Origin: Atribacterota bacterium
GTDB taxonomy: Bacteria > Atribacterota > Phoenicimicrobiia > Phoenicimicrobiales > Stramentimicrobiaceae
Direction of reading: 5' to 3'
DNA length: 64,000 nt
Assembly: GCA_040767965.1 (NCBI GenBank)
Contig: JAXGNR010000004.1
Location: forward strand, 704,001-768,000
Shown: positions 25,005 to 60,831 of the stretch, one piece after another
Layout of the letters: every line of letters begins with the position of its first letter
Numbering within the stretch: the first letter of the stretch is position 1
Notes under the pieces: generated by a model
The model's input: the letters and a program-made list of their open reading frames with translations, nothing else
What the model was told of the DNA's origin: nothing
Databases searched by the model: none
Translations under genes and position numbers: made by a program

Positions 25005-25011
25005 ATTTTTC

Positions 25012-25964: not shown

Positions 25965-26011
25965 TATTATTAATCCACCTTAGTTTTTATAAAAACTGAA
26001 TTTCCGAAAAA

Positions 26012-26040: not shown

Positions 26041-26056
26041 AAACATTTGGGCTGTT

Positions 26057-27572: not shown

Positions 27573-27600
27573 ATTATATCACTTATCTTTAAAAAAACAA
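27573..27600 (-). promoter_or_regulatory. Putative promoter of rho giving a long 5' leader
   Basis: TTGTTT-16 nt-TATAAT with TGn, about 255 nt upstream of the rho start. Confidence 0.55.
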
Positions 27601-27643
27601 TACATTAATATTTTTATTTTTTAATAATATAAAATATAATCAG

Positions 27644-30039: not shown

Positions 30040-30197
30040 TTATTTCCCCTATTCACTTTTAATAGTTTATATATTATTCATACTTTTAATGTTAATCAAA
30101 ATAAAATTATACTAACTTCAATCAACAAAACACTTTAATATTATAATAGTATATTTGTAAAAAAAAAGAGTTTCAGGATATTTTTTATAAAAAATAT

Positions 30198-30833: not shown

Positions 30834-30859
30834 TTTAAAAAACCTTTAACCGGACAGTT

Positions 30860-32834: not shown

Positions 32835-32865
32835 AACTATATTATTATAATTTTATATTAATTTA

Positions 32866-35688: not shown

Positions 35689-35732
35689 ATTTTTTTCTCC
35701 GCTTTATGCAAAAAAACTTAAACTTCAATTAT

Positions 35733-37730: not shown

Positions 37731-37929
37731 TTAAAAAATATTACCTCAAATAAATATAATGAATAGTTTTAATGATTCCGGTATTTTACCAAAAATAAAT
37801 TATATCATAAAATAATATTTAGTCATGGGGTTTTTATTGTCAATTCATATGAACAACATAAAATAAAGCAGAACAGAATGATATTTTTATAGTTTTTAAA
37901 TATACAATTTAGAAAAAGCAGATAAGCTG

Positions 37930-38541
37930 CTAAATAAAAGTATTTAGCTCTTTCCATAATTTTATTACTTGTTCTTTAGTGTTTTCAATACTTTTACTAT
38001 TATCTATAACATAATCTGCAAGTTTTATCTTATCCTGCATAGGCATTTGGCTTTCAATCCTTTTTATAGCTTCATCATTGTTTAGCCCATTTCTTGTTTT
38101 TAGCCTTGTAAGTTGTTGTTCCCAGTCTAAGTATACCACAATTATTTTATCCATAATATTATCTGTTTTTGTCTCAAAAAGTAAAGGGATATCAATTATG
38201 CAGATTCTTTCATTTTCTGAATTATTTTTTATTTCTTTTATCTTTTTTTTGATATTGTTTATTATTTCAGGATGAGTAATACTGTTTAATAGTTTCAATT
38301 TTCTGTTGTCAGAAAAAACTATATCTGCCATTTTTTTTCGGTCGATCTCATTGTTTTCATTCAAAATTTCTTTCCCGAAATTTTTAATAATCATTTTCCA
38401 TGATTTTCTCCCCGGTAAAACCATTTGACGGGCAATCATATCAGCATCAATAATAATAGCACCTAATTGCTGAAATATTTTTGCAACTGTACTTTTACCG
38501 GTAACTATGCCTCCAGTAAGTCCCACGACAAGTACTTTCAT
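37930..38541 (-). CDS. coaE: Dephospho-CoA kinase
   Basis: GLTGGIVTGKST, DAD, THP, DIPLLFE; start MKVLVV at 38541. Confidence 0.96.
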   Translation of the reverse strand: MKVLVVGLTGGIVTGKSTVAKIFQQLGAIIIDADMIARQMVLPGRKSWKMIIKNFGKEILNENNEIDRKKMADIVFSDNRKLKLLNSITHPEIINNIKKKIKEIKNNSENERICIIDIPLLFETKTDNIMDKIIVVYLDWEQQLTRLKTRNGLNNDEAIKRIESQMPMQDKIKLADYVIDNSKSIENTKEQVIKLWKELNTFI

Positions 38542-38546
38542 AATAT

Positions 38547-41237: not shown

Positions 41238-41294
41238 TTTTTTCTTTCGCTATATTATTAATAATAAGTCTATCTATAATTATTTTATACTTGC

Positions 41295-41323
41295 TTGACA
41301 TTACACATAGACTAAATTATAAT
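41295..41323 (+). promoter_or_regulatory. Consensus sigma70/SigA promoter of tRNA-Leu
   Basis: TTGACA-17 nt-TATAAT, perfect consensus. Confidence 0.85.
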
Positions 41324-41352
41324 CTTTTTGTGTAATTTTATATATTTTAATT

Positions 41353-41441
41353 GCCGAAGTGGCGAAATTGGTAGACGCACTGGACTCAAAATCCAGCGGG
41401 CCTCACAGCTCATGTCGGTTCGACTCCGACCTTCGGCACCA
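41353..41441 (+). tRNA. tRNA-Leu(CAA)
   Basis: Acceptor GCCGAAG/CTTCGGC, D-arm, anticodon stem CTGGA/TCCAG with loop CTCAAAA, long variable arm, GGTTCGACT T-loop, encoded CCA. Confidence 0.97.
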
Positions 41442-41446
41442 CTACT

Positions 41447-44400
41447 TCAAGCAGTCTTTTCAAACCAAACTTTCCCCTTTGTCAAAAAATCTTTAATTTC
41501 TTCAATAATATTTTGATCGTATTTTATCCCGAAATCATTGCCAATTTTCTGGCAAAAAGTTTTTTTAGAAGTCTTGTAGTGCAAAATAATTGGATTATTT
41601 CCAGGATACTTAGTGAAAATATTTTTTAACTTATGCAGTTTTTTTAAATCCATGCTATCCATTTCTGTTTCAATATGGAGACAATATTTTTTGTTAGTAT
41701 TCTCATTGTCAATGGTAATGTTTTTAAATATTGGTGCTTTTTTCTTCTTTTTATAATCTTCAATGGGAACTATTGATTCAGCTAATATTTTTGCACTGAA
41801 TTCACCAATATCGAGTTTTCCTTCCACAATAACTATATTTTCTTCAGTAATTATATCTTTATGATCTTCAAATGTTTTGGGAAATACAATAATATCAACA
41901 GTACCTTCAAAGTCTTCTAAAACAAAATATGCCATCATATTACCATTTTTAGTTGTTTTTTTCCTTATTCCGCTAATTATCCCGCCCATAATTACATGGC
42001 TTTTATCCTCATAATCAGGTAATCGGGAGGTTGACGCATCTGTTATTTTCTTTATTTTTTCCTTATAATCATCAAGAGGATGTTTTGATAAGTAAAAACC
42101 AAGGATTTCTTTTTCCATCGTTAAAAGCTCCTGGTCATTAAACTCATCAATATCAGGTAATGAAAAATTTTCACGAATTATATTATTTTCACTGTTATTA
42201 TCACTAATTAATGCAAAAATATTCGTTTGTCCGTTTCTTTTTTCTTTTTCTGCTTCATGCCCCAAATTGATGGCATGTTCTAATATAGATAACAATTGTG
42301 ATCTTTTAGCTTTGGTAGAATCAAAAGCGCCACATTTTATCAAGCTTTCTATAGTTCTACGGTTCATGGTTTTCAAATCTACTCTGCGACAAAAATCAAA
42401 CAAAGAAGTAAAACAACCTTTTTCATTGCGCTCTATGATTATGTTTTCTATAGCAGCGTTTCCGACATTTTTTACCGCAGCTAATCCAAAACGAATGGAT
42501 TGCTTGTCAACAACAGTAAAATCTATCAGGCTTTCATTTATGTCAGGAGGTAATATTTTTATATTAATATTCTGACTTTCTTTTATATATTTAACTACTT
42601 TATCAGTATTCTGCATTATACTTGTTAGCAAAGCAGCCATATATTCTACAGGGTAATGAGCTTTCAAATAGGCAGTTTGGTAAGATATGTATGCATAAGA
42701 AACACTATGAGATTTATTAAACCCATATCCAGCGAAATAATCTATCAAATCAAATATCTCATTGGCAGTTTCTTTACTGATGCCATTCTTTACTGCTCCT
42801 TCAGTAAATAACTGATGTTGTTTATTCATAATTTCTTTTACTTTTTTACCCATGGCTTTTCTTAAAATATCTGCTTGACCCAGGGAATATCCTGCTAATT
42901 CACTTGCAATTTGCATAACTTGTTCCTGATAAACAATAACTCCGTAAGTATCTTTTAAAATTGGCTCTAGGCTGGGGTGAAGGTATTTAATATCAATCTT
43001 CCCTTTTTTACGATCAATAAAATCATCAATCATTCCACTACCTAGAGGGCCAGGTCTAAACAAAGCCAAAAGGGCAGTAATATCTTCAATGTTTTTTGGT
43101 TCCATTCTTTTTACTAAATCTATCATACCTGAACTCTCTAACTGGAACAGACCACAACAGTCTCCTTTAGCTAAAAGCTGATACGTCTTTTTGTCATCAA
43201 GAGGTATTTCATCAATATTTAGCTCTTTTTTTCTGGTTTTACGAATTATTTTTAAGGTATTATTAATAACAGAAAGTGTTCTCAAACCTAAAAAATCCAT
43301 TTTTAATAGGCCTAATGATTCTAAGTCTTCTGCTGCATACTGTGTTGAAGTTTCGCCGTCAGTGGTTAATTGAAGAGGTACGAAATCAGTTAAAGGATCT
43401 CTGGATAAAACAACTCCAGCAGCGTGTGTCGAAGCATGTCTGGATAATCCTTCTAATTTTGCTGATACTTCTATCATTTTTTTTATTTGAGGATCATCTT
43501 CCATCCTGTTTTTTAATTCCGGTTCGATTTGTAAAGCCTTCTTTATAGTCATCTTTGGGTCCATAGGAATTAATTTGGCTATTTTGTCAACTTGTCCATA
43601 AGGGATTCCCAATGATCTTCCTACATCTCTAATGGCAGCCCGGGCTGCCATAGTACCAAAAGTAATGATCTGGGAAACTTTATCACGACCATATTTATTA
43701 CTTACGTATTCTATTACTTCTCCTCTGCCTTCATAACTAAAATCGATGTCAAAATCTGGCATGCTGATTCTTTCCGGATTCAGAAATCGTTCAAACAATA
43801 ATTTATATTGCAATGGATTAATGTTTGTAATACTCAAGCAATAAGCAACTAAGCTGCCCGCTGCAGAACCTCTACCTGGCCCAACCATTATTTTGTGTTT
43901 TTTAGCATAATTAACAAAATCCCATACTATCAAAAAATAAGTTGAAAACCCCATTTTTTCTATAACAGAAAGCTCATAATCAAGTCTTCTTCTAATTTTA
44001 TCATTCAAATCAGGGAATTTGTTTTTTGCACCTTCGTAACAGATTTTTCTTAAATACTCATTATCAGTCAGATTATCAGGTAAGTTAAATTCAGGTAAAT
44101 GGGCAGTTCGAAAATCAATTTCCAAATTACATGATTCTGCAATCTTTAAAGTATTTTCCAGCGCCTCTGGAATATCAATAAATTGTTTTTCCATTTCTTC
44201 CGGAGTATTAAAATAAAACTCATCAGTGCTCAGTCTCATTCTGGTGGGATCATCCAGATTAGTTGCTGTTTGGATACATAATAAGATATCATGTGCTTCC
44301 CTGTCTTCACGATTTATATAGTGAACATCATTTGTAGCAACCAGCGGTATGTTTAAAGATTTCCCTAGTTTGATGAGTTCTTTATTTACAGCTATTTGTT

Positions 44401-44953
44401 CCGGCATAGTATTATTTTGTATTTCAAGATAAAAATTATCTTCCCCAAACATTTTCTGAAAATACAATGCGGCTTCTTTTGCTTTATTTATTTTATTTTG
44501 TAAAATATACTGAGATATTTCCCCTTTCAGACAGGCAGAAAGACAGATAAGACCATCACTATATTCTTGTAATAATTCTTTATCGATTCTGGGCTTATAG
44601 TAAAAACCTTCCAAAAATGATTTAGTAACCAATTGCAATAAATTTTGATATCCGGTTTTATTTTTTGCCAAAAGTATTAAATGATTCGGTGATTCTTTTT
44701 TGCCATTTGACTTATCTTTTCTGCTTTTTGAAGCAACATACACTTCACAACCAATGATGGGTTTAACATTGTTAGCCATTGCTTCTTTATAAAATTGAAC
44801 AGCTCCGTACATTACTCCATGATCTGTAATTGCTAATGCAGTCATCTTATTTTCTTTTGCTTTTGCTATTAAATCTTTTATTCTGCAAGCCCCATCAAGA
44901 AGACTATATTCAGAATGAACATGCAGATGTATAAAATTATTGTTTTTTGTCAT
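41447..44953 (-). CDS. dnaE: DNA polymerase III alpha subunit
   Basis: PHP HLHVHSEYSLLDG, GPGRGSAAGS, PDFDIDF, KMDFLGL, YGFNKSHS. Confidence 0.99.
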   Translation of the reverse strand: MTKNNNFIHLHVHSEYSLLDGACRIKDLIAKAKENKMTALAITDHGVMYGAVQFYKEAMANNVKPIIGCEVYVASKSRKDKSNGKKESPNHLILLAKNKTGYQNLLQLVTKSFLEGFYYKPRIDKELLQEYSDGLICLSACLKGEISQYILQNKINKAKEAALYFQKMFGEDNFYLEIQNNTMPEQIAVNKELIKLGKSLNIPLVATNDVHYINREDREAHDILLCIQTATNLDDPTRMRLSTDEFYFNTPEEMEKQFIDIPEALENTLKIAESCNLEIDFRTAHLPEFNLPDNLTDNEYLRKICYEGAKNKFPDLNDKIRRRLDYELSVIEKMGFSTYFLIVWDFVNYAKKHKIMVGPGRGSAAGSLVAYCLSITNINPLQYKLLFERFLNPERISMPDFDIDFSYEGRGEVIEYVSNKYGRDKVSQIITFGTMAARAAIRDVGRSLGIPYGQVDKIAKLIPMDPKMTIKKALQIEPELKNRMEDDPQIKKMIEVSAKLEGLSRHASTHAAGVVLSRDPLTDFVPLQLTTDGETSTQYAAEDLESLGLLKMDFLGLRTLSVINNTLKIIRKTRKKELNIDEIPLDDKKTYQLLAKGDCCGLFQLESSGMIDLVKRMEPKNIEDITALLALFRPGPLGSGMIDDFIDRKKGKIDIKYLHPSLEPILKDTYGVIVYQEQVMQIASELAGYSLGQADILRKAMGKKVKEIMNKQHQLFTEGAVKNGISKETANEIFDLIDYFAGYGFNKSHSVSYAYISYQTAYLKAHYPVEYMAALLTSIMQNTDKVVKYIKESQNINIKILPPDINESLIDFTVVDKQSIRFGLAAVKNVGNAAIENIIIERNEKGCFTSLFDFCRRVDLKTMNRRTIESLIKCGAFDSTKAKRSQLLSILEHAINLGHEAEKEKRNGQTNIFALISDNNSENNIIRENFSLPDIDEFNDQELLTMEKEILGFYLSKHPLDDYKEKIKKITDASTSRLPDYEDKSHVIMGGIISGIRKKTTKNGNMMAYFVLEDFEGTVDIIVFPKTFEDHKDIITEENIVIVEGKLDIGEFSAKILAESIVPIEDYKKKKKAPIFKNITIDNENTNKKYCLHIETEMDSMDLKKLHKLKNIFTKYPGNNPIILHYKTSKKTFCQKIGNDFGIKYDQNIIEEIKDFLTKGKVWFEKTA

Positions 44954-45020
44954 AATGTAACTCTCTTAACTTTTTTTGTATTATTATACAGGAAATTAAT
45001 TTTATAATTATTTTCAGATA

Positions 45021-45054
45021 ATAATAAGGAAAGCTTTTAAGCTTTCCTTATTAT
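45021..45054. terminator. Intrinsic terminator hairpin after pfk
   Basis: Inverted repeat ataataaggaaagctt / aagctttccttattat. Confidence 0.75.
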
Positions 45055-45144
45055 ATATTAATATTATCATAAATTAGAGTTAATTTTAATGCTTTAAGTA
45101 ACTACTAATTTTATTTATTTTAATGCATATTATTAGAATTGATT

Positions 45145-46176
45145 TTATTTGAAAAAGATTTTAGCAAAATTGAGCCAATTATTATCAACAATTCTGATAT
45201 TTTTTGTAGCTTCATCTAATGGAATAGCAATAGTGTCATTTCCCTTTAAAGCTGCCATCATACCGTACTCATTATTTTCTATTAACTCCACTGCCTTTAC
45301 CCCAGTTCGCAATCCCAGCATACGATCAAATACAGTTGGATTCCCACCTCTTTGCATATGGCCAATTACAGAGTGTCTGGTTTCAATTCCGGTTTTTTGA
45401 CAAATAACTTCTCCTAAAGCCAGTCCTATCTCCCTTTCTTTTAATATCATATGTCCGAATTGATCTAATTTTTCTTCTTTATTTTCAGTACCCGGCAAAA
45501 CTACTCCTTCAGAAACAACTACCAGGGCATATTTTTTTCTGGAAAACACTCTTTGTAACTGTTTGCACATTCCATCTATATCCGGTTCTTCCTCAGGCAC
45601 CAGTATCCAATCTGCTCCAGATGCAAGACCAGTATAAAGGGCGACCCAACCTGCATGCCTGCCCATAACCTCCAGTATCATTACTCTATGATGCGATTTG
45701 CCTGTGTCTTCCAAACTTTTCATAGCTTCAACTGCTCTTGTTACTGAGCTGTCAAAACCAAATGTAAAATCAGTTGCAGATAAATCATTATCCATTGTTT
45801 TGGGAGCACCCACTACGTTTACCTGATTTTCCTTAAACAATTTATTAGCAACACCTAGTGTGTCTTCACCGCCCATGGCTAATATAGCATCAAGCCCATA
45901 ATTACTTATAGTTTGCAAAACTCTTTTTACTCCATTTTCAATTTTAAATGGATTAGTTCGAGATGTTCCCAGCATGGTACCTGCTTTATCTATTAATTCT
46001 TCTGCATCTTGCAGGTCAATTTTCATTATATTTCCATCCATTAAACCTTTCCATCCATCGCGGATACCAAATACTTCATACTTAAAATCATGGGCACGAT
46101 AAACCGCGCCTCGGATAGCAGGATTTAATCCACAACAGTCTCCACCACCAGTTAAAATTCCAATTCTTTTGGTCAT
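45145..46176 (-). CDS. pfkA: 6-phosphofructokinase, probably PPi-dependent or mixed-substrate type
   Basis: TGGGD, GTSR, GGEDT, PKTMDND, EVMGRHAGW, GHMQRGG. Confidence 0.93.
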   Translation of the reverse strand: MTKRIGILTGGGDCCGLNPAIRGAVYRAHDFKYEVFGIRDGWKGLMDGNIMKIDLQDAEELIDKAGTMLGTSRTNPFKIENGVKRVLQTISNYGLDAILAMGGEDTLGVANKLFKENQVNVVGAPKTMDNDLSATDFTFGFDSSVTRAVEAMKSLEDTGKSHHRVMILEVMGRHAGWVALYTGLASGADWILVPEEEPDIDGMCKQLQRVFSRKKYALVVVSEGVVLPGTENKEEKLDQFGHMILKEREIGLALGEVICQKTGIETRHSVIGHMQRGGNPTVFDRMLGLRTGVKAVELIENNEYGMMAALKGNDTIAIPLDEATKNIRIVDNNWLNFAKIFFK

Positions 46177-46207
46177 CTCTTACCTCCATTATATTGATTA
46201 ATAATTA

Positions 46208-47074
46208 TTAACTTTTATTTTTAGAACCTAAAACTCTAATGCGCCCTTTAATTACCTGCTTAGCAGCTTCTTTTGCATATCCCAAAGGTTTTCTCGGATC
46301 AACTTCGCCAGGATTCTGTAGCATATATTCTTTAATTGCAGTTGTAAATGCAACACGTATACGAGTATCTATATTTACCTTGCAGATACCTGAAGAGATT
46401 CCTTTCTTGAGTTCATCATCATCTACGCCTGAAGCTCCGTGCAAAACAAGTGGAATTCCTGTCAAACTTTTTATTTTTTCTATTCTTGCAAGGTCAAGTT
46501 TTGCAATAGTATCTTTACAGCCATGAATGGTTCCTACAGCAGCAGCAAGTGAATCTATTCCGGTTTGTTTAACGAATTTTGCAGCTTCTTCTGGATCAGC
46601 CATATATTCTTTTATTCTTTCTAAGGCAACTCCTGGTTCATCACTAGAGTCCATTTTCCCAATTTGGCCTATTTCAGCCTCAACAGGTATATTGCAGGCA
46701 TGGGCCATTTCAACAACTTTTTTTGTCATCTCCACATTCTCATAAAAGGGCAATTTTGAACCGTCAAACATTAATGATGTGAAGCCAGCCCTTAAACAAA
46801 GAATATTTTGAAAAAAATCTGTTCCATGGTCCAGATGTAGAACAACAGGAATTGTTACAGATTCAGCCATGGTTTTGACCATACTTACTATCATATTCAG
46901 TTCAGCATATTTTATTGCTCCCTGAGAAGCTTGTACTATTACCGGAGAGCTTTCCTCATTTGCTGTTTCAATAATAGCCTGAACTATTTCCATATTGTTG
47001 GCATTAAAAGCTCCCACTGCATAATTATTTCTTTGAGCATCTAATAGAAGCTCTTTACTGGTAACTAAAGGCAT
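46208..47074 (-). CDS. fba: Class II fructose-bisphosphate aldolase
   Basis: GAFN, HLDHG, VEAEIG, GTIHG, LVLHGASG, KVNIDT. Confidence 0.95.
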   Translation of the reverse strand: MPLVTSKELLLDAQRNNYAVGAFNANNMEIVQAIIETANEESSPVIVQASQGAIKYAELNMIVSMVKTMAESVTIPVVLHLDHGTDFFQNILCLRAGFTSLMFDGSKLPFYENVEMTKKVVEMAHACNIPVEAEIGQIGKMDSSDEPGVALERIKEYMADPEEAAKFVKQTGIDSLAAAVGTIHGCKDTIAKLDLARIEKIKSLTGIPLVLHGASGVDDDELKKGISSGICKVNIDTRIRVAFTTAIKEYMLQNPGEVDPRKPLGYAKEAAKQVIKGRIRVLGSKNKS

Positions 47075-47311
47075 TTATTTCTCCTCTCTATTTTCTTTCC
47101 GGAAAATAGTAAACTAATAAATAATCATATTTTGTAATTATATATATGTTGTCACCTAATTGCAATTAGAGACTTAAAATTTAGAATATTAATATTTTAA
47201 ATTTTAGGAAAAAAATTTGAGTTACTTTTTAAATAATGATATATTCATTTAAAAACAAATTATACCCTTACTCTACTTTCAGAAATATATCTTATAAAGA
47301 AAGGAGAAAAG

Positions 47312-48322
47312 ATGTCTAATTTTCAAAATGACCCCCCAAATAACATTAATGACATTCTGGATAAAATCCCAAAAATAAAATTTGATTTTGGAAAGAAAAT
47401 AATTAAATTAATATTGCTCGTAATGGCAATTCTTTATGTTGCAACCGGAATTTACATTGTCCAACCAAATGAACAAGGTGTGGTAAGGAGGTTCGGCAAA
47501 TTTGCAAGGCTTGATAGCCCTGGTTTGCATTACCACCTACCTTACCCTTTTGAAACTGCAGTTACACCATCAGTAACTGAGATCAAAAGAATTGAAATCG
47601 GATTTCGCACTACTCGAAGCGGATATACAGAAATGTCTGAAGAATCGTTGATGCTAACTGGAGATGAAAATATCGTTAATGCCGAGGCAATAGTACAGTA
47701 TAGAATCAAAAATGCTGCTGATTATTTATTTAATATTATAGAGCCTGAACAAACAGTCAGAAATGCTTCAGAAGCTGCCTTAAGACAGGTAATTGGCAGC
47801 AGGAAAATTGATGATGCTCTTACAGAGGGAAAATATGAAATCCAGGAGGAAACAAAATTTCTAATACAGGATTTACTGGATTCTTATGAATCAGGAATTA
47901 TTGTAATGGCAGTACAATTGCAAGATGTAAATCCCCCAGAAGAAGTATCTGCAGCCTTCAAAGATGTTGCAAGTGCTAAAGAAGATAAAAGTAAATTCAT
48001 CAATGAAGCTGAAGGTTATCGAAATGACATAATACCTAATGCCAGAGGAGAGGCCGCTACTATCATAAAAGAAGCAGAGGGTTATAAAATAGAAAGAATA
48101 AGAAAAGCCGAAGGAGATGTTGCTAAGTTTAACCAAATATTACTGGAATATCAAAATGGAAAAGATGTAACAAAATATAGACTCTATATTGAAACAATGG
48201 AAACAATCTTGCCTTATATGGAAAAATTTATTATGGAAAATGAAAATAATGATTTAATAAAATTTTTACCTCTAAAAAATCCTTTCGGGATTGACAATAA
48301 CCCAAAAGATGGTATCAAATAA
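47312..48322 (+). CDS. hflK: FtsH modulator HflK
   Basis: SPFH domain, MLTGDENIV, ARGEA, RLYIETME. Confidence 0.95.
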   Translation: MSNFQNDPPNNINDILDKIPKIKFDFGKKIIKLILLVMAILYVATGIYIVQPNEQGVVRRFGKFARLDSPGLHYHLPYPFETAVTPSVTEIKRIEIGFRTTRSGYTEMSEESLMLTGDENIVNAEAIVQYRIKNAADYLFNIIEPEQTVRNASEAALRQVIGSRKIDDALTEGKYEIQEETKFLIQDLLDSYESGIIVMAVQLQDVNPPEEVSAAFKDVASAKEDKSKFINEAEGYRNDIIPNARGEAATIIKEAEGYKIERIRKAEGDVAKFNQILLEYQNGKDVTKYRLYIETMETILPYMEKFIMENENNDLIKFLPLKNPFGIDNNPKDGIK

Positions 48323-49179
48323 TGAAAAAGACTTTTTATATTATTATTGTTTTCCTGTTGATTATTATTGCAAGTTTTTCTTTTTTTATTGTAGATGAAA
48401 CAAGACAGGCTATTATCCTGCAATTCGGTAAACCAGTTAAGGCTATTCAGGAAGCTGGTCTGTATGTCAAGATTCCTTTCATTCAAAATGTTGTCTTTTT
48501 TGAAGATCGTTTATTAATTTATGACGCTTTACCTACAGAAATTATTACTAGAGATAAAAAAACTTTAATTCTAGACAATTATGCCAGATGGAAGATAAAA
48601 AATCCTTTACTTTTTTTGCAAACAGTTCGAGACCTAAACGGCGCACAAGCCAGACTTGATGATATTATTTATTCAGAATTGAGAGTTGATTTAGGGAAAT
48701 TCGACATGAGCGAAATTGTGTCTCAAAAAAGAACTGAAATAATGGGAACAGTTACTCAGCGCAGTAATGAAAAATCCATGGAATACGGTATAAATATAAT
48801 TGATGTCAGAATAAAAAGAGCAGATTTACCACCAGAAAATGAACAGAATATTTTTGCCCGGATGGAAGCAGAGCGTGAAAGAATTGCAAAGCAATATAGA
48901 GCAGAAGGACAAGAAGAATCTGCTAAAATAATAGCAGAAACCGAAAGAGAAAAAACAGTTATACTGGCAGAGGCATACAAAGAAGCTCAGCAGTTAAGAG
49001 GTGAAGGTGAAGCAGAAGCAATAAAGATTTATGCAGAAAGCTTTAATCAGGATCCAGAATTTTATCAGTTTTATAGATCATTGGAATCCTACCAGAATAG
49101 CCTCAACCAGAATACAACCATTTTACTGTCACCAGATAATGAATATATTAAATACTTAAAAAATATTCAAGTAAAATAA
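48322..49179 (+). CDS. hflC: FtsH modulator HflC
   Basis: QFGKP, DVRIKRADLP, RMEAERE, DPEFYQFYRSL; TAATG coupling to hflK. Confidence 0.95.
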   Translation: MKKTFYIIIVFLLIIIASFSFFIVDETRQAIILQFGKPVKAIQEAGLYVKIPFIQNVVFFEDRLLIYDALPTEIITRDKKTLILDNYARWKIKNPLLFLQTVRDLNGAQARLDDIIYSELRVDLGKFDMSEIVSQKRTEIMGTVTQRSNEKSMEYGINIIDVRIKRADLPPENEQNIFARMEAERERIAKQYRAEGQEESAKIIAETEREKTVILAEAYKEAQQLRGEGEAEAIKIYAESFNQDPEFYQFYRSLESYQNSLNQNTTILLSPDNEYIKYLKNIQVK

Positions 49180-49181
49180 AG

Positions 49182-49229
49182 ATAAGAAAGGCTTTTATAC
49201 AAATTTAAAAGTATAAAAGCCTTTCTTAT
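49182..49229. terminator. Bidirectional terminator between convergent hflC and RNase H fusion gene
   Basis: 19-bp perfect inverted repeat ataagaaaggcttttatac / gtataaaagcctttcttat. Confidence 0.8.
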
Positions 49230-49273
49230 ATAATTTATTCATTTATTTTGTTAACACTTTAATATCAAAGCTT

Positions 49274-50815
49274 TTAATAACCTAATTCAATACTTATTAT
49301 ATTATCCGGTTTTTCACAGTTTGCTACTTTGATAATATTTTTATATATAGCTAAAACATTTTCTTCTATAGCTTTTTCAGTGTATCCGGCAACATGTGGA
49401 GACATAATAACATTGTCCAATTTATGAAAATTGTATTTACTGGGATAATTTTTAGAATTATTTTTTTCAGGATATTGATACCAGACGTCTATGGCTGCTC
49501 CTGCCAGAAATTTATTTTCCAGGTATTTATAGAGAATTTTTTCTTCTACTACTTTTCCCCTGCTTATATTGATAAGATATTTATTTTTCATTTGGGAAAG
49601 AATTTTTTCATTAATAATATTTTCAGTTTGTTTGGTTAAAGGAACTGTAACAACTATAAAATCAGAATTTTTTATCACGAATTCAATATCGTCTTTGTCA
49701 CCGATATATTGTAGCTTATATTTTTTTTCTAATTTCTTCTTGTTTTTTGCATTTCTTTTTATTGCCAAAACATCCATTCCAAAAATATTGGCCTTTTTCG
49801 CTATTTCTAAACCAATTGATCCTAAACCTATGATTCCTAATTTCTTACCAGCAAGCTCTATATTTTTTTCATTTTTTAAGAAATCATTCCATTTCCCTTT
49901 TCTTAAATCAGAATCATTTTTTATAAGTTTTTTGGCTAAAGCCAACAACAAACATATGGCATGTTCCGAAACTGCATTGCTGTTGCTATGAGTATTGCAA
50001 ATAAATATTTCAGGATAATCTTTAAAAGCACTTAAATCCAAATTATCTAATCCTGAATAAGGTATCTGATAAAGTTTTAAATTGTTCGTCAGTTTAAGAT
50101 CTTCATTGGTTAATTTACCACCTATTATAATATCTGATATTTTTAAAATATCTTTTAAATTCTCTCTACCATTTTCCGGAAATATTAAATTAAATGGAAT
50201 ACTGTGTTTTTCATTTAGATTTTGTAACTTTGTTTTCCAATCACCGGGGCTTAGCATTTTGCTGAAAATTAAAATATTTATTTTATGTTTCTCTGTTTCA
50301 TTATTTAAGTTTTTTATTCCAGTAAAATCATCATTAAATTCTGATATAGGTTTTTCTTTTTTTGCTTTTAAGACTATATCTTCTTCGGGTAATCTTGATT
50401 TTTGATCCTCTGTTTTTTTAATTAACAAACTGCGTGCCAGTTGATCAGCTATCTTATTTTCTTCTCTGCTGTTCCAATAAAAATAAACCTCTGTGTTTTT
50501 AATTTCTTTTAACAGGGTTTTTATTTCATTATAGAGAGGAATTATATTTTCATTTTTAATTTTAAATTGTTTGTTTAATTGCTTTACAACTAATTGGCTG
50601 TCACAGTAAAATTCTGCTATTTGAAAGTTCATTCCCTTGATTTCTTCTAATCCCCTGATAACAGCTTTATATTCAGCAATGTTATTAGTACCAAATCCTG
50701 CTAGTTCATTTATTTTTTTAATTATTTTATTGTCCTCATAAATCACAACGCCAATTGCCATATTTCCAGGATTAGGAATACAGGAGCCATCAACTCTTAA
50801 TATTAATTTTGACAT
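49274..50815 (-). CDS. Fusion: N-terminal ribonuclease HI plus C-terminal D-2-hydroxyacid dehydrogenase
   Basis: aa 1-130: DGS..PNPG, TNNIAEY, DSQLV, REEN..AD; aa ~180-513: VSEH, GIIGLGSIG, NISRG, DVWYQYP, SPHVAG. Confidence 0.85.
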   Translation of the reverse strand: MSKLILRVDGSCIPNPGNMAIGVVIYEDNKIIKKINELAGFGTNNIAEYKAVIRGLEEIKGMNFQIAEFYCDSQLVVKQLNKQFKIKNENIIPLYNEIKTLLKEIKNTEVYFYWNSREENKIADQLARSLLIKKTEDQKSRLPEEDIVLKAKKEKPISEFNDDFTGIKNLNNETEKHKINILIFSKMLSPGDWKTKLQNLNEKHSIPFNLIFPENGRENLKDILKISDIIIGGKLTNEDLKLTNNLKLYQIPYSGLDNLDLSAFKDYPEIFICNTHSNSNAVSEHAICLLLALAKKLIKNDSDLRKGKWNDFLKNEKNIELAGKKLGIIGLGSIGLEIAKKANIFGMDVLAIKRNAKNKKKLEKKYKLQYIGDKDDIEFVIKNSDFIVVTVPLTKQTENIINEKILSQMKNKYLINISRGKVVEEKILYKYLENKFLAGAAIDVWYQYPEKNNSKNYPSKYNFHKLDNVIMSPHVAGYTEKAIEENVLAIYKNIIKVANCEKPDNIISIELGY

Positions 50816-54646: not shown

Positions 54647-55417
54647 TTATACTAGTCTGGATATGTTTTTAGTTATTTTGGGATAATTTTCATACATTAA
54701 CGGATCATGGCCAGGAAATAAATATTCAATAGAAGATACCTTCTCTCTCAGCATTGAATAGCTTTTTAGCCATTCAGGTAAATTAGTTATATAGATACTA
54801 GGCCAATCTTCCTGATAATTTTTAAAATAGTACCCGCAATCAGAGCCAATTATAGCTTTTCCTTTTTTAGTATTAACCAAAACAGATTGGTTGCCAAATG
54901 TATGCCCGGCTGACAAAATGCAATCAATTCCATCTACAATGTTAAAATTGCCATTTATTATTTTAAGTCTATCAGTTCCTTCTAATGACTCTAAATACTT
55001 ATATGATTCCTGATCTGAAGTAGACATGAAAGGTGGTCTTTTTGCAAGGGGATTTTTTAGCCAAAAGTTATATTCAGATTCCTGAATATAAAATGAAGCT
55101 TTTGAAAAAAGAGTAACTCCATTTGTATGATCCAAATGTAAATGTGTAATAATAATTTTATTTATATCTTCCGGTTTGAGATTTATTTGAGTAACTAATT
55201 CTGCAGGATTGACATAATTTAACAATTGCATTTTTTCTGCTTGTATTGGATGAATTCCAGTATCTACAAGTATATTTTCATTTTCACCTTTAATCAGCCA
55301 AATATAATAACTGCTTTCTGCTAATTCTCCCCAATCCCTGTTCCACATTCCAACAGCTGCTGGTCTTTTTACCGGCCCGGCATACCTTAATGCATATATT
55401 TCAAAGATATTTTTCAT
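54647..55417 (-). CDS. N-acyl-homoserine lactonase-family metallo-hydrolase
   Basis: VDTG, THLHLDH (HxHxDH), GHTFG.QSV, GSD, PGHDP. Confidence 0.85.
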   Translation of the reverse strand: MKNIFEIYALRYAGPVKRPAAVGMWNRDWGELAESSYYIWLIKGENENILVDTGIHPIQAEKMQLLNYVNPAELVTQINLKPEDINKIIITHLHLDHTNGVTLFSKASFYIQESEYNFWLKNPLAKRPPFMSTSDQESYKYLESLEGTDRLKIINGNFNIVDGIDCILSAGHTFGNQSVLVNTKKGKAIIGSDCGYYFKNYQEDWPSIYITNLPEWLKSYSMLREKVSSIEYLFPGHDPLMYENYPKITKNISRLV

Positions 55418-55554
55418 AAATGCTCCTTTAATTAGAATATTTTTGACAGTGATTAATGTTTATATAAGCTGATTTCAGTGAATAATGATATATATTATTT
55501 AAAATTATTTTATCAATAGGGATTATATTATCTGATAAATTATATATTATTCTC

Positions 55555-55583
55555 ATTTTAGCAAGTGACAACTAAATTGACAA
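55555..55583 (-). promoter_or_regulatory. Putative promoter of lactonase-SDR-dhaK-dhaL operon
   Basis: TTGTCA-17 nt-TAAAAT with TGn extended -10. Confidence 0.6.
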
Positions 55584-55634
55584 CAAAAGAACAGATTTTT
55601 ACAGTTAATAATTTTTTGAATAGTAAAGTAATTT

Positions 55635-57317
55635 TTATTTTTTTGTTTTTTTTATTAACTCTTCTGCTATTTTATTTCCATTAAAAAAGAAATATGGAAA
55701 TTTTCTGAATTGAGAAACTTTATCATTTTCAATAAATTTTTTACTATCTTCAATTTTTCCCGATATGTATTTTTCATAATCTGACAGGATTTCTGTTATA
55801 TTTTTGTTTATTTTATTAATTTTTTTAGAAACAAGATACTTCTGGTTACTTGGAGTGTTTTGGATTATTTTTATTAGATCATGTTTTTCCTTAATTAATT
55901 TGTTTATCATCTGATTCTTTTCTTCTGGAAGATTAGCTTCATCGATTATCTTTTCCGGATTATATTGTATTGTCCTTTTTTTCTTTTCTAAAACAGAAAT
56001 AGCTTCTATTGTTGTTGTTTTAACAGGCAAATCAAGTAAAAATGTAGCGGAAATAGTCAAAAACCTGGGAGGGATTATTTTAAAATATTTTTGCATTATA
56101 TCATCTGTAATACAGTCATATTTTGATCCTCCGATACCATGAATAAAAAGATCTGCTCCAAAAAGACGGTTAAATAAAGTTAAAATAATTGCTCTTGGGT
56201 ATAGGATGTAATTATTTTCTTGAATGTGTTTCTTGAATTTTGTAAAAACTGTATCTTCTTTTCCATTTATTATAGAAAACAAGGCAATGTTATCACCATA
56301 AATATCTTCAATAAATATTGACCCATTTTGTTTTTTGATAAATATCTTTTTTCTTTCCGAACGTTCGCCTCTTTTCCATATCCAAAATGGTGTTTCTATT
56401 CTATTGTTATCTGTGGAAAGATCTGGTAAAGGGTTGGCTGCATTTTTAATCTTGTGAGCTAGTCTATATTCATGAAGGCTTTTATTATAGATATATGAGA
56501 AATTTTCTATATTAAAAACTATTTCTAAAAAGAATAAAAGTAAAGAGTCATGATTTGAAATAAAAGAGTATGGTAAATCATAATACTGGGGATTTATAGT
56601 GCTTTCATAAAGTCTCCTGCAGGTTGTCATAAATATACCTAACTGATTCATTGCAGGAGTTGATTTGCATATTTTGTAAGCATTTTTAAAACAATTTGAA
56701 AATACATTATAGTTTTGATAAGTATTATCTGGCAGAAACTGAATACTTTTATTAATTTTTTTTAAAACATTTAATAGCATTTCTTTTGATGGTATTTGTA
56801 ATTCCTGTAAAGGAATTTCATTATTATTGATACTTAAAATATGTTTTCTTAAAGAAATATCACTGGAGTTTTTTTGTATATTATTATCAATTTCAGTATT
56901 AATAGCTGGATAGTATATTGAAACAGGATTAACAACATCATTATCTAAGTTTAAGTTTATCCCAAAAATATTTTTTGAGCTATTTTCTTTTATTATTTGA
57001 TTTAAGAGAATATTTTTTATCCATACTCCGGGATGATAAAATTCAGGCTGATGCCCTGTCATTATTATACAATCAACAGATTTTTCAGAAAAAGGGAGCC
57101 TTGAAGGAGTAATTATATCTGTGAAAGATAATGTTTTTTTTATCAAATCAATACGATATCTATTTCTAAGGCTATTAAAACTCTTATGAAATATTTTTAT
57201 GTTGTTATTATTTAATATTCTCATATTTTCTTCAATAATTTTAGAGATACAAGAATAATCAGGATGAAGTATTATTTCTTTGTTTTTAATAGGTACTTTC
57301 AGAGATCTGCTTTTCAT
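55635..57317 (-). CDS. Uncharacterised 560-aa protein, distant BshC-like putative amino-acid ligase
   Basis: IMTGHQPEFYHPGVWIK, LFIHGIGGSKY, C-terminal coiled coil and QFRKFPYFF resemble in order BshC GQQ..F.GP.Y..YK, GGPGE.AY, coiled coil and QER motifs (by recall); directly follows a BshB1-like gene. Confidence 0.55.
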   Translation of the reverse strand: MKSRSLKVPIKNKEIILHPDYSCISKIIEENMRILNNNNIKIFHKSFNSLRNRYRIDLIKKTLSFTDIITPSRLPFSEKSVDCIIMTGHQPEFYHPGVWIKNILLNQIIKENSSKNIFGINLNLDNDVVNPVSIYYPAINTEIDNNIQKNSSDISLRKHILSINNNEIPLQELQIPSKEMLLNVLKKINKSIQFLPDNTYQNYNVFSNCFKNAYKICKSTPAMNQLGIFMTTCRRLYESTINPQYYDLPYSFISNHDSLLLFFLEIVFNIENFSYIYNKSLHEYRLAHKIKNAANPLPDLSTDNNRIETPFWIWKRGERSERKKIFIKKQNGSIFIEDIYGDNIALFSIINGKEDTVFTKFKKHIQENNYILYPRAIILTLFNRLFGADLFIHGIGGSKYDCITDDIMQKYFKIIPPRFLTISATFLLDLPVKTTTIEAISVLEKKKRTIQYNPEKIIDEANLPEEKNQMINKLIKEKHDLIKIIQNTPSNQKYLVSKKINKINKNITEILSDYEKYISGKIEDSKKFIENDKVSQFRKFPYFFFNGNKIAEELIKKTKK

Positions 57318-58007
57318 TTATACTAAGTCCTGAATATTTTTTATTCCAACACATTCCTTTGATATAAAGGCTTCTCCATATTCCCTGCCTATTAATCCAC
57401 CCCAATAAGAATTTTTTCTTTTTACCCAGGCAATACCAGCATGTTGGTTTAAGCTTGATCCAAATTGAGATTCATAACATTCTAAAGCAGTTAATTTCTT
57501 CTCCATTTCATCAGATATGTTATATATAAAATTAGGTGAAATATTTAATCTGATATGAGAGACTAAATAATAATATATTTTAGGTACGTAATAAGGATCT
57601 CCTTCCATATTTGTTTTTGTAAGTTTACCGTAAAACCTGGCAGCATCGCATAATTTAGAAGCTGCAATATGGTCTGGATGGGCATCAATCCAATAAGGAG
57701 CAAATATGATTTCTGGTCTATTTATTCTAAATTGTTCTGCTAATTTTTGACGAGAAGGAATATCGTCTGTTAAATATCGATTTTTTAAAGTAATATTAAT
57801 TCTATTTTTTACTCCAAGTATTTGTTTTGCTTTTTCAGATTCATTTTTTCTTTTTTCAACAGTTCCACGCGGAGTTGGTTCTCCATCTGTTAAATCCAGA
57901 ATTGTTACATCTATATTTTGTTTTACCATTGATATTATTGTTCCACCCATTCCTATTTCCACATCATCAGGATGAGCTCCTATAGCCATTGCTTTCAATA
58001 CAATCAA
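57318..58007 (-). CDS. PIG-L family N-acetylglucosaminyl deacetylase, BshB1-like
   Basis: GAHPDDVEIGMGG, DLTDGE...RG, R..E, DAHPDH, YESQF, YGEAF. Confidence 0.9.
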   Translation of the reverse strand: MIVLKAMAIGAHPDDVEIGMGGTIISMVKQNIDVTILDLTDGEPTPRGTVEKRKNESEKAKQILGVKNRINITLKNRYLTDDIPSRQKLAEQFRINRPEIIFAPYWIDAHPDHIAASKLCDAARFYGKLTKTNMEGDPYYVPKIYYYLVSHIRLNISPNFIYNISDEMEKKLTALECYESQFGSSLNQHAGIAWVKRKNSYWGGLIGREYGEAFISKECVGIKNIQDLV

Positions 58008-58720
58008 TCTCCTTTCGGATTATTTTTATATAATATGAAAACCTTTTCAAGGTATTATTCAGGATAACTCCAAATGTTCGTTTCTCATCTGTATAAATTA
58101 GCTCAATTGGCATTTCCTTAAGAATTAATTTTTGTTTATGTGCCTGTAAAATAAGTTGCAGCGGTAAACCAAAACCTTTTTCTGTTAATTTTAATTTTTT
58201 TAACGCCGATACACTATATATTTTAAAACCACAAAAAGAATCAGTTAAATCATAATCGGTAATTGCAGATAGTATTTTTGTTATTCTATGATTAACCTTT
58301 TGTCTGTTTGGAGGAGGTGTTGATAACATCATTTTCGGATCAAGATATCTTGATCCTGATAAAATATCTATATTATTTTTTTTAATCGTATTCACAAAGT
58401 GAGGGATATTTTCCGGCTCATGCTGTCCATCACCGTCAATAGTTATTATATATTTATAATTATTTTTTATTGAAAAATTAAAACCATTAATTAACGTTTT
58501 ACCATAACCTTCATTTGTGTGATGATTTATATAAAATAGGTTACCATTATTCTTTTCAGAAATATTTTTTATTATAGAATCGCTTGAATCTGTTGAACCA
58601 TCATTAATAATAAGAATATCGCTTTTTGAATATTTTCTAATATCATCTATAACTTTTTCAATATTTTTTCTTCGTTATATACCGGATAAATATTAAAATA
58701 TCTTGCTTATGTTTTTTCAT
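57967..58720 (-). CDS. Family 2 glycosyltransferase (DPM1-like), with two apparent 1-nt deletions near the 5' end
   Basis: Manual reading from ATG 58720 with two frame corrections gives ILIFI-PVYNEEK-IEKVIDDI...INDGSTD...NEGYG...IDGDGQHEP, continuing into ORF 57967-58395 (GSRY, TDSFCGFK). Both indels sit in homopolymers (CC near 58682, A6 near 58664-58669), so sequencing error or a recent pseudogene. Confidence 0.8.
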
Positions 58721-58748
58721 TTTTATTTAATTAATTTTTTAAATTTTT

Positions 58749-58787
58749 AATAAAGGATTATCTTTATTTTAAAGATAATCCTTTATT
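58749..58787. terminator. Intrinsic terminator hairpin after the AOR gene
   Basis: 18-bp perfect inverted repeat aataaaggattatcttta / taaagataatcctttatt. Confidence 0.75.
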
Positions 58788-58841
58788 TTTGTTATATGTT
58801 ATATATTATACTCTATTTAATTTTTTTACATTTAACAATAA

Positions 58842-60718
58842 TCAGCATTCAATCCATTCCAGATCCAGCTCTGCCAGTTTGGCTTTTGGTTGGAACTCCA
58901 TTTTCATCCCAGCCCTGTATGGCATAGTAGGTTTGAAGGGCTCAATTGAATTCTTCTTTATCAATAGCCTTGTCTTTTAAAGGGCCGCTGGTAAAGGCCT
59001 TGAAGATACGATCCGGTAATTTATCATCTTCGGTAAATCCTTCTCTGTTGTTGAAGCAGCGGGCCATGGTGTTAGCCTTTTTCTCCCACTTTAATCAGTT
59101 CAAATAAGCTGGTATTCCAGCCGGTTACTGCTTCTACTAAAGAAACCAGGTTTTTAAGGCTTTGAAAACCTATAGGAACTGAAGTAAAATTACACATTCC
59201 AATACTGTTATATAAATCTAATATTTTCTGAGTTGTAGACAAAAAGCCAATTTTTTTATCACTTAAATCTAATGGTTCAATTGGTTCCAATAAACCCAAA
59301 GCTGAAACCTCTTCAAGAGGAAAACCATAGTCAGTAAACATAACATCGTGTGGTATTTCACAATGATCTGCTCCGGTGGGAGAGATGGCATACGGATTCC
59401 TAAGCCAACTTTTCCTCTTGGTTCATGCATGGGAAATTCCTGTCCCTTGACATGCATGGCATACTGTTCTGCCCCTTTTCGAAATTTGTGCAGCTTTGGC
59501 TACGCCTTTGCTATAGGTGGCTCCTATTCCATCTAAGTTGTAGATCTTTTCGATCATCTTTTAACATGGCATCAGCATTGCCGAATTTCAGCTGGATGCC
59601 GTCGGTGTCTTTTTCGGTGATGATGCCTTCTTCGAAGCATTCCATGGCAAAGGCGATGGTGGTGCCGGTGGAGATGGTATCAAGTCCGTATTTGTTGCAC
59701 AGTTCATTACCTTTGGGCAATAGCCTCAAGATCATCTATTCCTAAGAGAGAGCCCAGGAACCGATGGTTTCATATTCAGGTCCTCCGTAATAGGGATCTA
59801 CATCATAGCGGCCTTCCACTTTGACTTCTCTTTGCAGCGGACCGGACAGGCATAGCAGTGGCCGCGCGGACTAAGATGGTCTCAGCCATGGTAGGTCCCG
59901 AGATGGCAGAGGCACCTTCAAACTGGCCTTCCCTGAAGTTGCGGGTAGGCAGGATGCCGGCTGCGTTTAAGGATTCTACTCCTCTGGGCGGTACCGTAAT
60001 CGTGCATGCCCTGGGAGACTTGTTTCCAATTGAGGGGCAAACTCCTTGGTAATCTCTTTGATCTTGGCCTATCATGATAGGGGTTCTTGCCTGAGGGCGT
60101 ACGGCAATGGCCCGCAGTTTCTTGGAGCCCATGACTGCTCCCAGGCCTACTTCAGGCCGTTGTAATGTTTTGATTCATTGCTTATGCAGGCATAGTTGAT
60201 CAGCTTTTCTCCGGTGGCCGCGATCTGGGCTATTCTGATCTTATCATCTCCCAATTCTTCACGGATCATACGCTTCGGCTTCTCCGGTGGTCTTACCGGT
60301 TATGGATGCGGCATCACGTAATTCTATCTTGTCATCCTTGATCCACAGGTAGACGGGCTGGGGGAGAGATGCCTTTGATGATGATGGCATCATAGCCGGC
60401 CCATTTGAACTCAGGGCCCACCAGCCTCCGGCTTCTGCTTCTCCGAAGCCTCCGGTTAAGGGGGATTTGGCTGCTACGGTGTAACGGCTGGCTCCCGGGA
60501 CGGTGGTACCGGTAATGGGACTGCAGGCAAAGACTAAGATGTTCTCAGGGCCTAAGGGACCATGCCCTTGGGCATCTCTGAAAGTGGCAGGGAACTGGCC
60601 ATGCTCTCCCTCCCAGGTACTTGCGGTAGATGAGCTCTGGTAAGACTTCTGTTTTGACTTCACCTTTGGAGAGGTCTACTCTGATGATCTTGCCATTATA
60701 GGGTTTCTTTTCTGACAT
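58842..60718 (-). pseudogene. aor: Aldehyde:ferredoxin oxidoreductase (tungsten AOR family), multiply frameshifted
   Basis: Fragments in order: MSEKKPYNGKIIRVDLS (ATG 60718 after GGAGG), AKSPLTGGFGEAEAGG, GAVMGSKKLRAIAV, LPTRNF, GPEYET, CNKYGLDTISTG, MHVKGQEFPMHEPR, SIGMCNF, AVTGW, ELDLEWIEC-stop; span is about full length. Confidence 0.85.
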
Positions 60719-60831
60719 AATATATGCCTCCTTTTGAAATTTAATTAGAACTAGGGTTTAGGGTAAAAACTATTACTTTAATTATAATTACAAATAGATT
60801 TAATTGCCCTTTTACAATAAAAGGCAAAAAT

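Follow-up and report, generated by a model that had tools for sequence, protein, structure and literature searches.

In this study, a 64,000-nt stretch of DNA from an Atribacterota bacterium (contig JAXGNR010000004.1, positions 704,001 to 768,000; hereafter the window, within which all coordinates are counted) was found to carry a three-gene cassette that, on balance, probably encodes a variant of the bacillithiol/mycothiol type of pathway, with steps of glycosylation, deacetylation and amino acid addition. The cassette consists of a family 2 glycosyltransferase (GT2), a PIG-L deacetylase (PIG-L) and a 560-aa protein, and its predicted product would be a soluble aminoacyl-GlcN-X that is related to bacillithiol and probably not identical to it. 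A previous reading of this DNA (the original prediction) had described three coupled genes on the minus strand and had interpreted them as a bacillithiol-like pathway with a swapped glycosyltransferase. The genes were indeed present at those positions: the GT2 frame ends at 57967 and overlaps the start of PIG-L (TTG at 58007, or an ATG six codons further in), and the PIG-L stop abuts the ATG of the 560-aa open reading frame (ORF). The interpretation itself was supported by homology, gene linkage and phylogenetic profile, that is, by the fold and family relationships, the arrangement of the genes, the absence of BshA and BshC, and a complementary distribution among genomes. What is new in this work is the Atribacterota instance and the frameshifted state of this copy, the complementary distribution across planctomycetes with its bridge genomes, and the two-clade split among the deacetylases.

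The 560-aa protein, the putative amino-acid-adding ligase, matched no Pfam or NCBIfam family at E ≤ 1. Its structure was modeled with AlphaFold2 (AF2) from an alignment of 27 ligase-family sequences (alignment A1), yielding a predicted local distance difference test (pLDDT) score of 91.2 and a predicted template modeling (pTM) score of 0.86. The top PDB match of this model in Foldseek was BshC (4WBD, E 7.8e-13), followed by class I lysyl-tRNA synthetase (LysRS). VIA-align also ranked BshC 4WBD first, with Z 24.4, a root-mean-square deviation of 5.5, and 459 of 540 residues aligned over model residues 2..559; next came class I LysRS 1IRX (Z 20.2, 278 residues aligned), other class I aminoacyl-tRNA synthetases (aaRS) at Z of about 10, and MshC 3C8Z at Z 9.3. 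The structural comparison with BshC for which the original prediction had called therefore came out in its favor. The protein has a Rossmann core with class-I-aaRS-like TGHQP..HPG..K, DND and HGIGGxKYD motifs, followed by a C-terminal helical coiled-coil part; the coiled coil claimed earlier corresponds to long helices at residues 465-535 of the model. The motifs quoted earlier, TGHQPEFYHPGVWIKN, LDNDV, HGIGGSKY and QFRKFPYFF, were all found.

A second line of evidence came from hhalign. When A1 was compared with an alignment of six BshC sequences from planctomycete genomes (A3), a match with Prob 78.5 and E 1.7e-5 was obtained over 328 columns, in a register that paired TGHQP of the ligase family with TGQQ of BshC, DND with DHD, and HGIGGxKY with AGPGExAY. 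The six A3 sequences define a BshC signature of GQQ.G..GGPL[YF]...K, [ED]DH[DN] and G[PG]GE[IL][AS]Y, and at these places the ligase family has GHQP..HPGVWIK, DND and GIGGxKY. Thus, the same motifs are paired and their residues differ, in agreement with the prediction that BshC motifs would occur in the same order with changed active-site residues. The 560-aa protein is a distant homologue with the architecture of BshC that lies outside the BshC family by hidden Markov model (HMM) or signature residues. With a pair of His residues ahead of the first helix and a Lys in the second motif, its motifs seem nearer to the HIGH/KMSKS motifs of aaRS than do those of BshC.

The ligase family was represented by 134 matches in a 90%-clustered database, all labelled 'hypothetical', and by 2614 50%-identity clusters at E ≤ 1e-3 in an exhaustive search. 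Its members are mostly from Planctomycetota (Brocadia, Kuenenia, Scalindua, Jettenia, Pirellulales, Gemmatales and Isosphaerales), and the nearest relatives of the window protein, at 35-46% identity, come from records labelled Atribacterota/Caldatribacteriota. The nearest named clusters of the 560-aa protein in the Atlas carry PF10079 (scores 0.86 and 0.80) and serve as leads only. Shorter (430-460 aa) and more divergent members, with E values of 1e-12 to 1e-20 against A1, were also seen (loci L128, L129 and L130 in genomes G227, G046 and G178; also genomes G078, G099 and G192). These adjoin a GT2 orthologue or sit within a few kb of one, and they are possible intermediates between the ligase family and BshC.

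The genome from which the window comes (98% complete) gave no match to BshC (TIGR03998) at E ≤ 10. For BshA (TIGR03999), the best of six GT4 matches reached 140 bits against a cut-off of 273.7, which agrees with the earlier expectation that no bshA lies elsewhere in the genome. Among the 41 genomes nearest to that of the window (own genome included), the ligase was found in 13, in 4 of these only as fragments or at contig ends; a GT2 orthologue at ≥185 bits was found in 11, BshB1 above cut-off in 16, and canonical BshC in none. Weak matches to the BshC model in G037 and G030 (E about 0.005-0.008) were rejected, given that they sit in unrelated genes. Conservation of the trio was next assessed by gene order. 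The order GT2 - PIG-L - ligase was kept in 9 of 12 loci of Atribacterota-type relatives. In a second set of 80 loci from other species, across phyla, a GT2 orthologue (34-54% identity) lay directly upstream of the ligase in 51, and PIG-L lay between the two in 7, all of the Atribacterota type. The trio is therefore conserved as had been predicted, and the GT2-ligase pair more widely so. The Brocadiales loci had neither GT2 nor PIG-L within 6 kb of the ligase. A xylose-isomerase-like TIM-barrel gene (AP_endonuc_2) recurred at a distance of a few kb from the ligase, mainly in Brocadiales; it was seen at L046, L075, L038 and L130 and, by clustering, in 18 of the 80 loci. It could take part in aglycone synthesis or could simply reflect lineage synteny.

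Five planctomycete genomes, including Brocadia and Kuenenia, were checked individually. All five contained BshB1 above cut-off elsewhere in the genome, and none contained BshC, or BshA above cut-off; the neighbors of these unlinked BshB1 genes showed no obvious shared partner. The same question was then put to 201 Planctomycetota genomes, all searched with the same five queries (ligase at E ≤ 1e-10, BshC at E ≤ 1e-5, BshA at E ≤ 1e-55 and BshB1 at E ≤ 1e-45, together with the GT2 orthologue, whose scores were bimodal, either ≥200 or ≤151 bits). The ligase family was found in 44 genomes and canonical BshC in 113; no genome had both, and 44 had neither. BshA occurred in 106 genomes, all inside the BshC set. 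The GT2 orthologue occurred in 50 genomes, never together with BshA, and was present in all 44 ligase genomes. BshB1 was found in 152 genomes, of which 151 had one or other ligase and the remaining one (G164) had GT2; among the 44 ligase-family genomes, 42 had BshB1. None of these genes was found in 43 genomes. GT2 and BshA are thus mutually exclusive alternatives, each occurring with BshB1 and a BshC-type ligase, and the profile is as expected if GT2 replaces BshA and the ligase replaces BshC in one BshB1-dependent pathway. Moreover, five bridge genomes (G132, G148, G177, G191 and G204) combined GT2 with a cut-off-passing BshC (293-319 bits) and had no BshA; GT2 adjoins BshC in the four of them whose coordinates were checked (all but G132). 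From their gene content, GT2 in these bridge genomes appears to work with a bona fide BshC. Canonical bshABC was present in about half of the 201 genomes, and the GT2 variant in a further 22% (44), including anammox genera and the cultured Blastopirellula marina DSM 3645 (locus L098); Singulisphaera sp. (locus L066) is another cultured carrier.

The deacetylase matched Pfam PF02585 (82.6 bits), passed the cut-off of the BshB1 equivalog model TIGR04001 (202 versus 182.5 bits), and carried the AHPDD and HPDH motifs. When it was aligned pairwise with B. cereus BshB (2IXD), H12, D14, D15, R53, H110, D112 and H113 were all kept. According to the accessible part of a published study (PMC4101496, 2IXD numbering), His12, Asp15 and His113 of BshB are zinc ligands, Asp14, His110 and Asp112 are catalytic, and Arg53 binds the sugar. 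Its prior assignment as a BshB1-like PIG-L enzyme was thus borne out both by the equivalog model and by the metal-binding and catalytic residues. The same part of that study proposes that Arg109 contacts GlcNAc-Mal (PMC4101496). At this position, Ala is found in the window deacetylase and in most of the GT2-linked enzymes; Arg109 was considered as a marker of a malate aglycone and set aside as a weak one, given that Arg was found in just 1 of 11 BshA-linked planctomycete deacetylases.

A tree was built from 37 deacetylases, chosen from the loci already fetched rather than from all matches. It split, at 100/100, into a BshA-linked clade (11 sequences) and a GT2-linked clade (26 sequences from bridge, planctomycete and Atribacterota genomes). 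The window deacetylase fell inside the GT2-linked clade, also at 100/100, and the Atribacterota deacetylases were sister to the Brocadiales type (91/85). GT2-linked deacetylases had a GEPTP signature and a 3-residue insertion, both absent from the BshA-linked clade. Given this split and these shared features, the deacetylase has co-diverged with the transferase, which fits a changed substrate rather than plain bacillithiol.

This result bears directly on the alternative that the cassette makes ordinary bacillithiol, with GT2 as a non-orthologous replacement of BshA that forms GlcNAc-malate, and with bacillithiol or an N-modified bacillithiol as the end product. That BshB1 passes its cut-off in the window and in all five planctomycete genomes checked individually, and that the bridge genomes join GT2 to a cut-off-passing BshC, would be in keeping with such a route. 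However, GT2 enzymes are inverting, whereas BshA is a retaining GT4 enzyme and bacillithiol is alpha-linked; the GT2-linked deacetylases form a clade of their own; and the ligase residues at the aligned motifs are unlike those of BshC. We therefore regard ordinary bacillithiol as a very unlikely product. As compared with the BshA/BshB1/BshC system known from Bacillus, Deinococcus-Thermus, Chlorobiota and others, the window cassette follows the same three-step logic, passes the BshB1 model, and has a third enzyme with the whole BshC fold, including the helical C-terminal part, which fills the slot of BshC in genomes. It differs in that its first enzyme is an unrelated, inverting GT2 of GT-A fold in place of the retaining GT-B enzyme BshA; its ligase fails the BshC HMMs and has GHQP..HPGVW.K for GQQ.G..GGPLY..K, DND for DHD, and GIGGxKY for GPGExAY; its deacetylase belongs to a separate clade; and YtxJ, Brx and YpdA were not found in its own genome.

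The GT2 enzyme scored 81.8 bits against Pfam PF00535 (cut-off 23.3) and carried a DDGS-type motif, DGDGQHEP (DXD), SGSRY and TDSFCGFK. An alignment of GT2 orthologues (A2, 15 rows) showed conservation of a D-x-D-G/E-Q-H-E/D-P motif in which the two Asp, Gln, His and Pro residues were invariant in 15 of 15 rows. The AF2 model of a GT2 orthologue (pLDDT 91.9) matched DPMS best (Z 23.7, 24% identity), with ArnC at Z 21.7 and GtrB at Z 20.3; soluble hydroxy-acid glycosyltransferases were close behind, with Z 20.6 for GpgS, 20.0 for MpgS and 19.7 for mannosylglycerate synthase. Both this model and A2 indicated a catalytic domain only, with no C-terminal membrane helices or interface segment, so that the description of a DPM1-like GT2 with no obvious transmembrane helix proved apt. 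The best NCBIfam matches were PpgS, AglJ, dolichyl-P hexose transferase and ArnC, and GT2 scored far below the cut-offs of all characterized polyprenyl-P transferase equivalogs examined (PpgS, AglJ, ArnC and GtrB-like; 78.4 versus 370 bits for PpgS).

These relationships raise the alternative of a lipid-linked envelope modification, in which GT2 would make polyprenyl-phosphate-GlcNAc at the surface of the membrane, PIG-L would de-N-acetylate it, the BshC-like enzyme would aminoacylate it, and the carrier would then decorate a cell-envelope polymer. PIG-L-type de-N-acetylation does occur in the synthesis of glycosylphosphatidylinositol anchors. The identity of the best NCBIfam matches and of the best solved relatives argues for such a role, as do the DxDxQHxPE and GSRY motifs that GT2 shares with DPMS in alignment, and a GT87 (GT-C) gene was found upstream in 8 of the 80 loci, all of one lineage. 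On the other hand, the matches to polyprenyl-P transferases are far below cut-off, no membrane or interface segment follows the catalytic domain, no flippase is conserved nearby, the GT-C gene is conserved in the one lineage only, and soluble hydroxy-acid glycosyltransferases are almost equal in structural score. Moreover, GT2 takes the place of BshA, whose malate acceptor is soluble, while the genomes keep BshB1 and, in five cases, a BshC above cut-off. Taken together, these data make a lipid-linked product unlikely, yet still a rival to be taken seriously. A small anionic acceptor is favored instead, because GT2 substitutes for a malate glycosyltransferase, because the downstream enzymes stay soluble and BshB1/BshC-like, and because neither a flippase nor a GT-C partner is broadly conserved.

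Under the favored bacillithiol/mycothiol-type reading, the soluble GT2 would move GlcNAc from UDP-GlcNAc to a small anionic acceptor; since GT2 enzymes invert, the GlcNAc-X intermediate is expected to be beta-linked, in contrast to the alpha-GlcNAc-malate that BshA forms. The BshB1-type zinc deacetylase would then free the 2-amino group, and the 560-aa BshC homologue would acylate it with an amino acid, for which cysteine is the likeliest candidate; its active site would probably be ATP-dependent and class-I-aaRS-like. The product would plausibly serve as a low-molecular-weight thiol. In this scheme, the sugar donor and its acceptor, the configuration at the anomeric carbon, the amino acid that is added and the role in physiology are all inferred. 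Given that the pathway works in this way, it is fairly likely that its product is a thiol.

Some features of the neighborhoods touch on this point. An Eis-like GCN5-related N-acetyltransferase (GNAT; Acetyltransf_9, sometimes with SCP2_2) was encoded immediately after the ligase, in the same orientation, in 18 of the 80 loci and in several planctomycete orders (for example, L098:7614-8984, L066:7729-9063 and L030:7726-9153, plus 15 further loci), which suggests that the product may be N-acylated. YpdA-like reductases were found in 17 of the 201 Planctomycetota genomes; all 17 were ligase-bearing, and 3 were of the GT2 type. In one genome (G116; locus L134, G116:C20), a YpdA-like pyridine-nucleotide disulphide oxidoreductase (306.8 versus 339.9 bits) lay about 2 kb from BshB1; a 580-aa protein with a C92 amidase domain is encoded between the two. 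The BshC homology, the GNAT and the YpdA-like reductases hint at a thiol, or at an amino acid that is N-modified. We tentatively propose that the set of GT2, BshB1-type deacetylase and divergent BshC homologue might make an undescribed low-molecular-weight thiol. This would be a cysteinyl-glucosaminide that is beta-linked, has a new aglycone, or both, with N-acylation in those cases where a GNAT follows, and it could be the principal thiol that is still missing for Planctomycetia and anammox bacteria, used by some Atribacterota as well.

The cassette was also compared with the mycothiol system of Actinomycetota (MshA/MshB/MshC/MshD), with which it shares the sequence of glycosylation, deacetylation and cysteine addition as well as a ligase of class I aaRS fold; the GNAT that follows the ligase in 18 of the 80 loci parallels MshD. 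However, MshC 3C8Z matched the 560-aa model at the general aaRS level only, the window deacetylase scored 30.6 bits for MshB (cut-off 224) and 27 bits for Mca (cut-off 277), and the GNAT is Eis-like rather than MshD and is absent from the window. With class I LysRS and other aaRS, the ligase has a Rossmann catalytic core in common, and, as we read the alignment and model, a HIGH-like His-rich motif and a KMSKS-like Lys motif stand at matching places; it differs in that no aaRS family HMM matches it and that its C-terminal part is a BshC-type helical domain. DPM1/DPMS, ArnC, GtrB and PpgS are the closest relatives of GT2, from which the window enzyme differs in consisting of the catalytic domain only, in scoring below every equivalog cut-off, and in belonging to a type that replaces a soluble malate glycosyltransferase in genomes. 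No description of a GT2-based bacillithiol-type variant was found in the literature searched, which lacked most subscription journals.

Several observations weigh against the bacillithiol/mycothiol-type reading. PF10079 was matched by none of the 27 ligase-family members at E ≤ 10, the Pfam matches obtained being at chance level only, and a search with A1 against all PDB sequences also gave no match at E ≤ 10; sequence alone thus gives no link to BshC, and the residues at the aligned signature motifs differ between the two families. The name "ligase" is itself an extrapolation, because the reaction of BshC has never been reconstituted biochemically, as stated in the accessible part of a 2018 review (PMC5790435). 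The closest relatives of GT2 in both sequence and structure (DPMS at E 6e-21, ArnC, GtrB and PpgS) act on polyprenyl phosphates. The clean two-by-two tables of the genome profile overstate the support, because related genomes are not independent, and no statistical claim is made from them. With regard to a thiol role, YpdA is rare even in canonical planctomycete systems (14 of 113), and the own genome of the window gave no match to YtxJ or Brx at E ≤ 1e-3, its best YpdA-like match reaching 63 bits against 339.9. Furthermore, 7 of the 16 Atribacterota-type genomes with a cut-off-passing BshB1 have no ligase (G025, G027, G030, G031, G032, G037 and G040), and in G024 the ligase, with 2 in-frame stops, and GT2 are reduced to fragments; the deacetylase can therefore persist alone. 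Lastly, the GT2 gene of the window is frameshifted twice.

The solo deacetylases nest among the cassette copies in the deacetylase tree, and in the four loci retrieved from the seven deacetylase-only genomes (L107-L110, from G027, G032, G037 and G030) the gene follows a Na/Pi-cotransporter-PhoU gene. This pattern suggests that the two outer genes were lost repeatedly while the deacetylase was kept, and the solo deacetylase probably has a role of its own.

The state of the GT2 reading frame was assessed by translation and by DNA alignment. The frame that opens with the ATG at 58720 runs for only 20 codons to a stop; a second frame encodes the conserved PVYNEE stretch, and the other 235 codons (57967..58674) lie in a third, whose first canonical start is a GTG only at 58395. 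Both frame changes sit in the first 16 codons. In relatives, GT2 is one uninterrupted ORF with an intact N-terminus, and when the window gene was aligned with the intact orthologue of its closest relative (G012, 65% identical), two single-base gaps were seen, which fall in a T/C run and in an A run. A profile search detected only one GT2 orthologue in the own genome (342.9 bits, profile positions 15-240). Thus, of the trio as originally described, a GT2 coding sequence is present, but an intact ORF from 58720 is not; the original prediction had overlooked both frameshifts. A metagenome scan with the ligase returned 5 loci, among which there was one near-identical contig (L136); at 2223 bases, it breaks off within the deacetylase gene and does not include GT2; 20 sequencing runs shared part of the stretch, the top four containing 0.62-0.72 of its words and being labelled landfill or soil metagenomes.

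The two gaps may be an assembly error or may be real decay. If both are real, the cassette may be inactive in this genome, and it would then be a decaying remnant with a GT2 pseudogene and no product, whatever its role elsewhere. Besides the two gaps relative to an intact orthologue and the lack of a second GT2 orthologue, the immediate surroundings favor this possibility: directly upstream of GT2 lies a multiply frameshifted remnant of an aldehyde:ferredoxin-oxidoreductase-like (AOR-like) gene, with a GC content of 0.47 versus 0.31 for the window, which aligns to the AOR of a relative with 28-53% identity, the matches being spread over at least three different frames. An intact AOR is located on the opposite side of the cassette in relatives. 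Loss is also documented in relatives by the decayed copy in G024 and the seven deacetylase-only genomes. Nevertheless, both gaps fall in homopolymer-type runs, a pattern typical of assembly error; the frames of the deacetylase, the ligase and the remaining 235 GT2 codons are uninterrupted, and all three are conserved; and the 45 other ORFs of at least 120 aa in window positions 1..50000 are tightly packed and look intact, with no broken genes among them. We consider a decaying remnant somewhat unlikely.

Positions of the cassette genes and of neighboring features are listed below. A scan for promoters and terminators found a single terminator-like site in 55300..59000, the inverted repeat, which is near-perfect, has an 18-pair stem and a 3-base loop, and separates the AOR remnant from the start of GT2; promoter-like sites numbered 30, versus 25.5 expected, which tells little. 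A glyoxalase-II-like thiolesterase role was weighed for the metallo-beta-lactamase encoded downstream of the ligase and rejected, its best score being for a distant AiiA-type lactonase (94.8 versus 375 bits); it is not kept beside the ligase in relatives. Elsewhere in the window, a 513-aa ORF shows an unusual combination of domains.

Features of the cassette and its surroundings in the window (positions within the 64,000-nt stretch)
Feature	Position	Strand	Evidence
Distant BshC homologue, 560 aa (putative amino-acid-adding ligase)	55635..57317	-	ORF; AF2 fold; hhalign
BshB1-type PIG-L/LmbE zinc deacetylase, 229 aa, GT2-associated subclade	57318..58007	-	ORF; TIGR04001; tree
GT2, GT-A glycosyltransferase resembling DPM1/ArnC (235-codon main open frame)	57967..58674	-	PF00535; orthologue alignment
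5' end of GT2 gene, ATG at 58720, out of frame through two 1-nt gaps	58675..58720	-	translation; DNA alignment
Inverted repeat	58749..58787		promoter/terminator scan
AOR-like remnant	~58840..60760	-	alignment to a relative's AOR
Metallo-beta-lactamase gene	54647..55417		
513-aa ORF, N-terminal RNase H / RVT_3-like domain fused to D-2-hydroxyacid dehydrogenase	49274..50815	-	

Canonical bshA, bshB1 and bshC were often adjacent in the sampled Planctomycetota. A gene for an S-adenosylmethionine-dependent methyltransferase, which may be NmbA-like, was seen next to bshC in two loci (L119 and L122). According to the accessible part of Hiras et al. 2018 (PMC6282198), Planctomycetes are among the major lineages without a documented or predicted small thiol for redox homeostasis; the presence of canonical bsh genes in the sampled genomes contrasts with that statement of no predicted thiol.

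The cassette is widespread in planctomycetes, including anammox bacteria, and its cultured carriers make the planctomycete thiol question directly testable. The large, divergent sister family of BshC, with its more aaRS-like motifs, would represent a second route to BshC chemistry. If the reading proposed here is true, the ligase, which keeps more aaRS-like ATP-binding motifs, could reveal how BshC-type enzymes activate cysteine, and about 2600 clusters of 'hypothetical' proteins would gain a pathway context.

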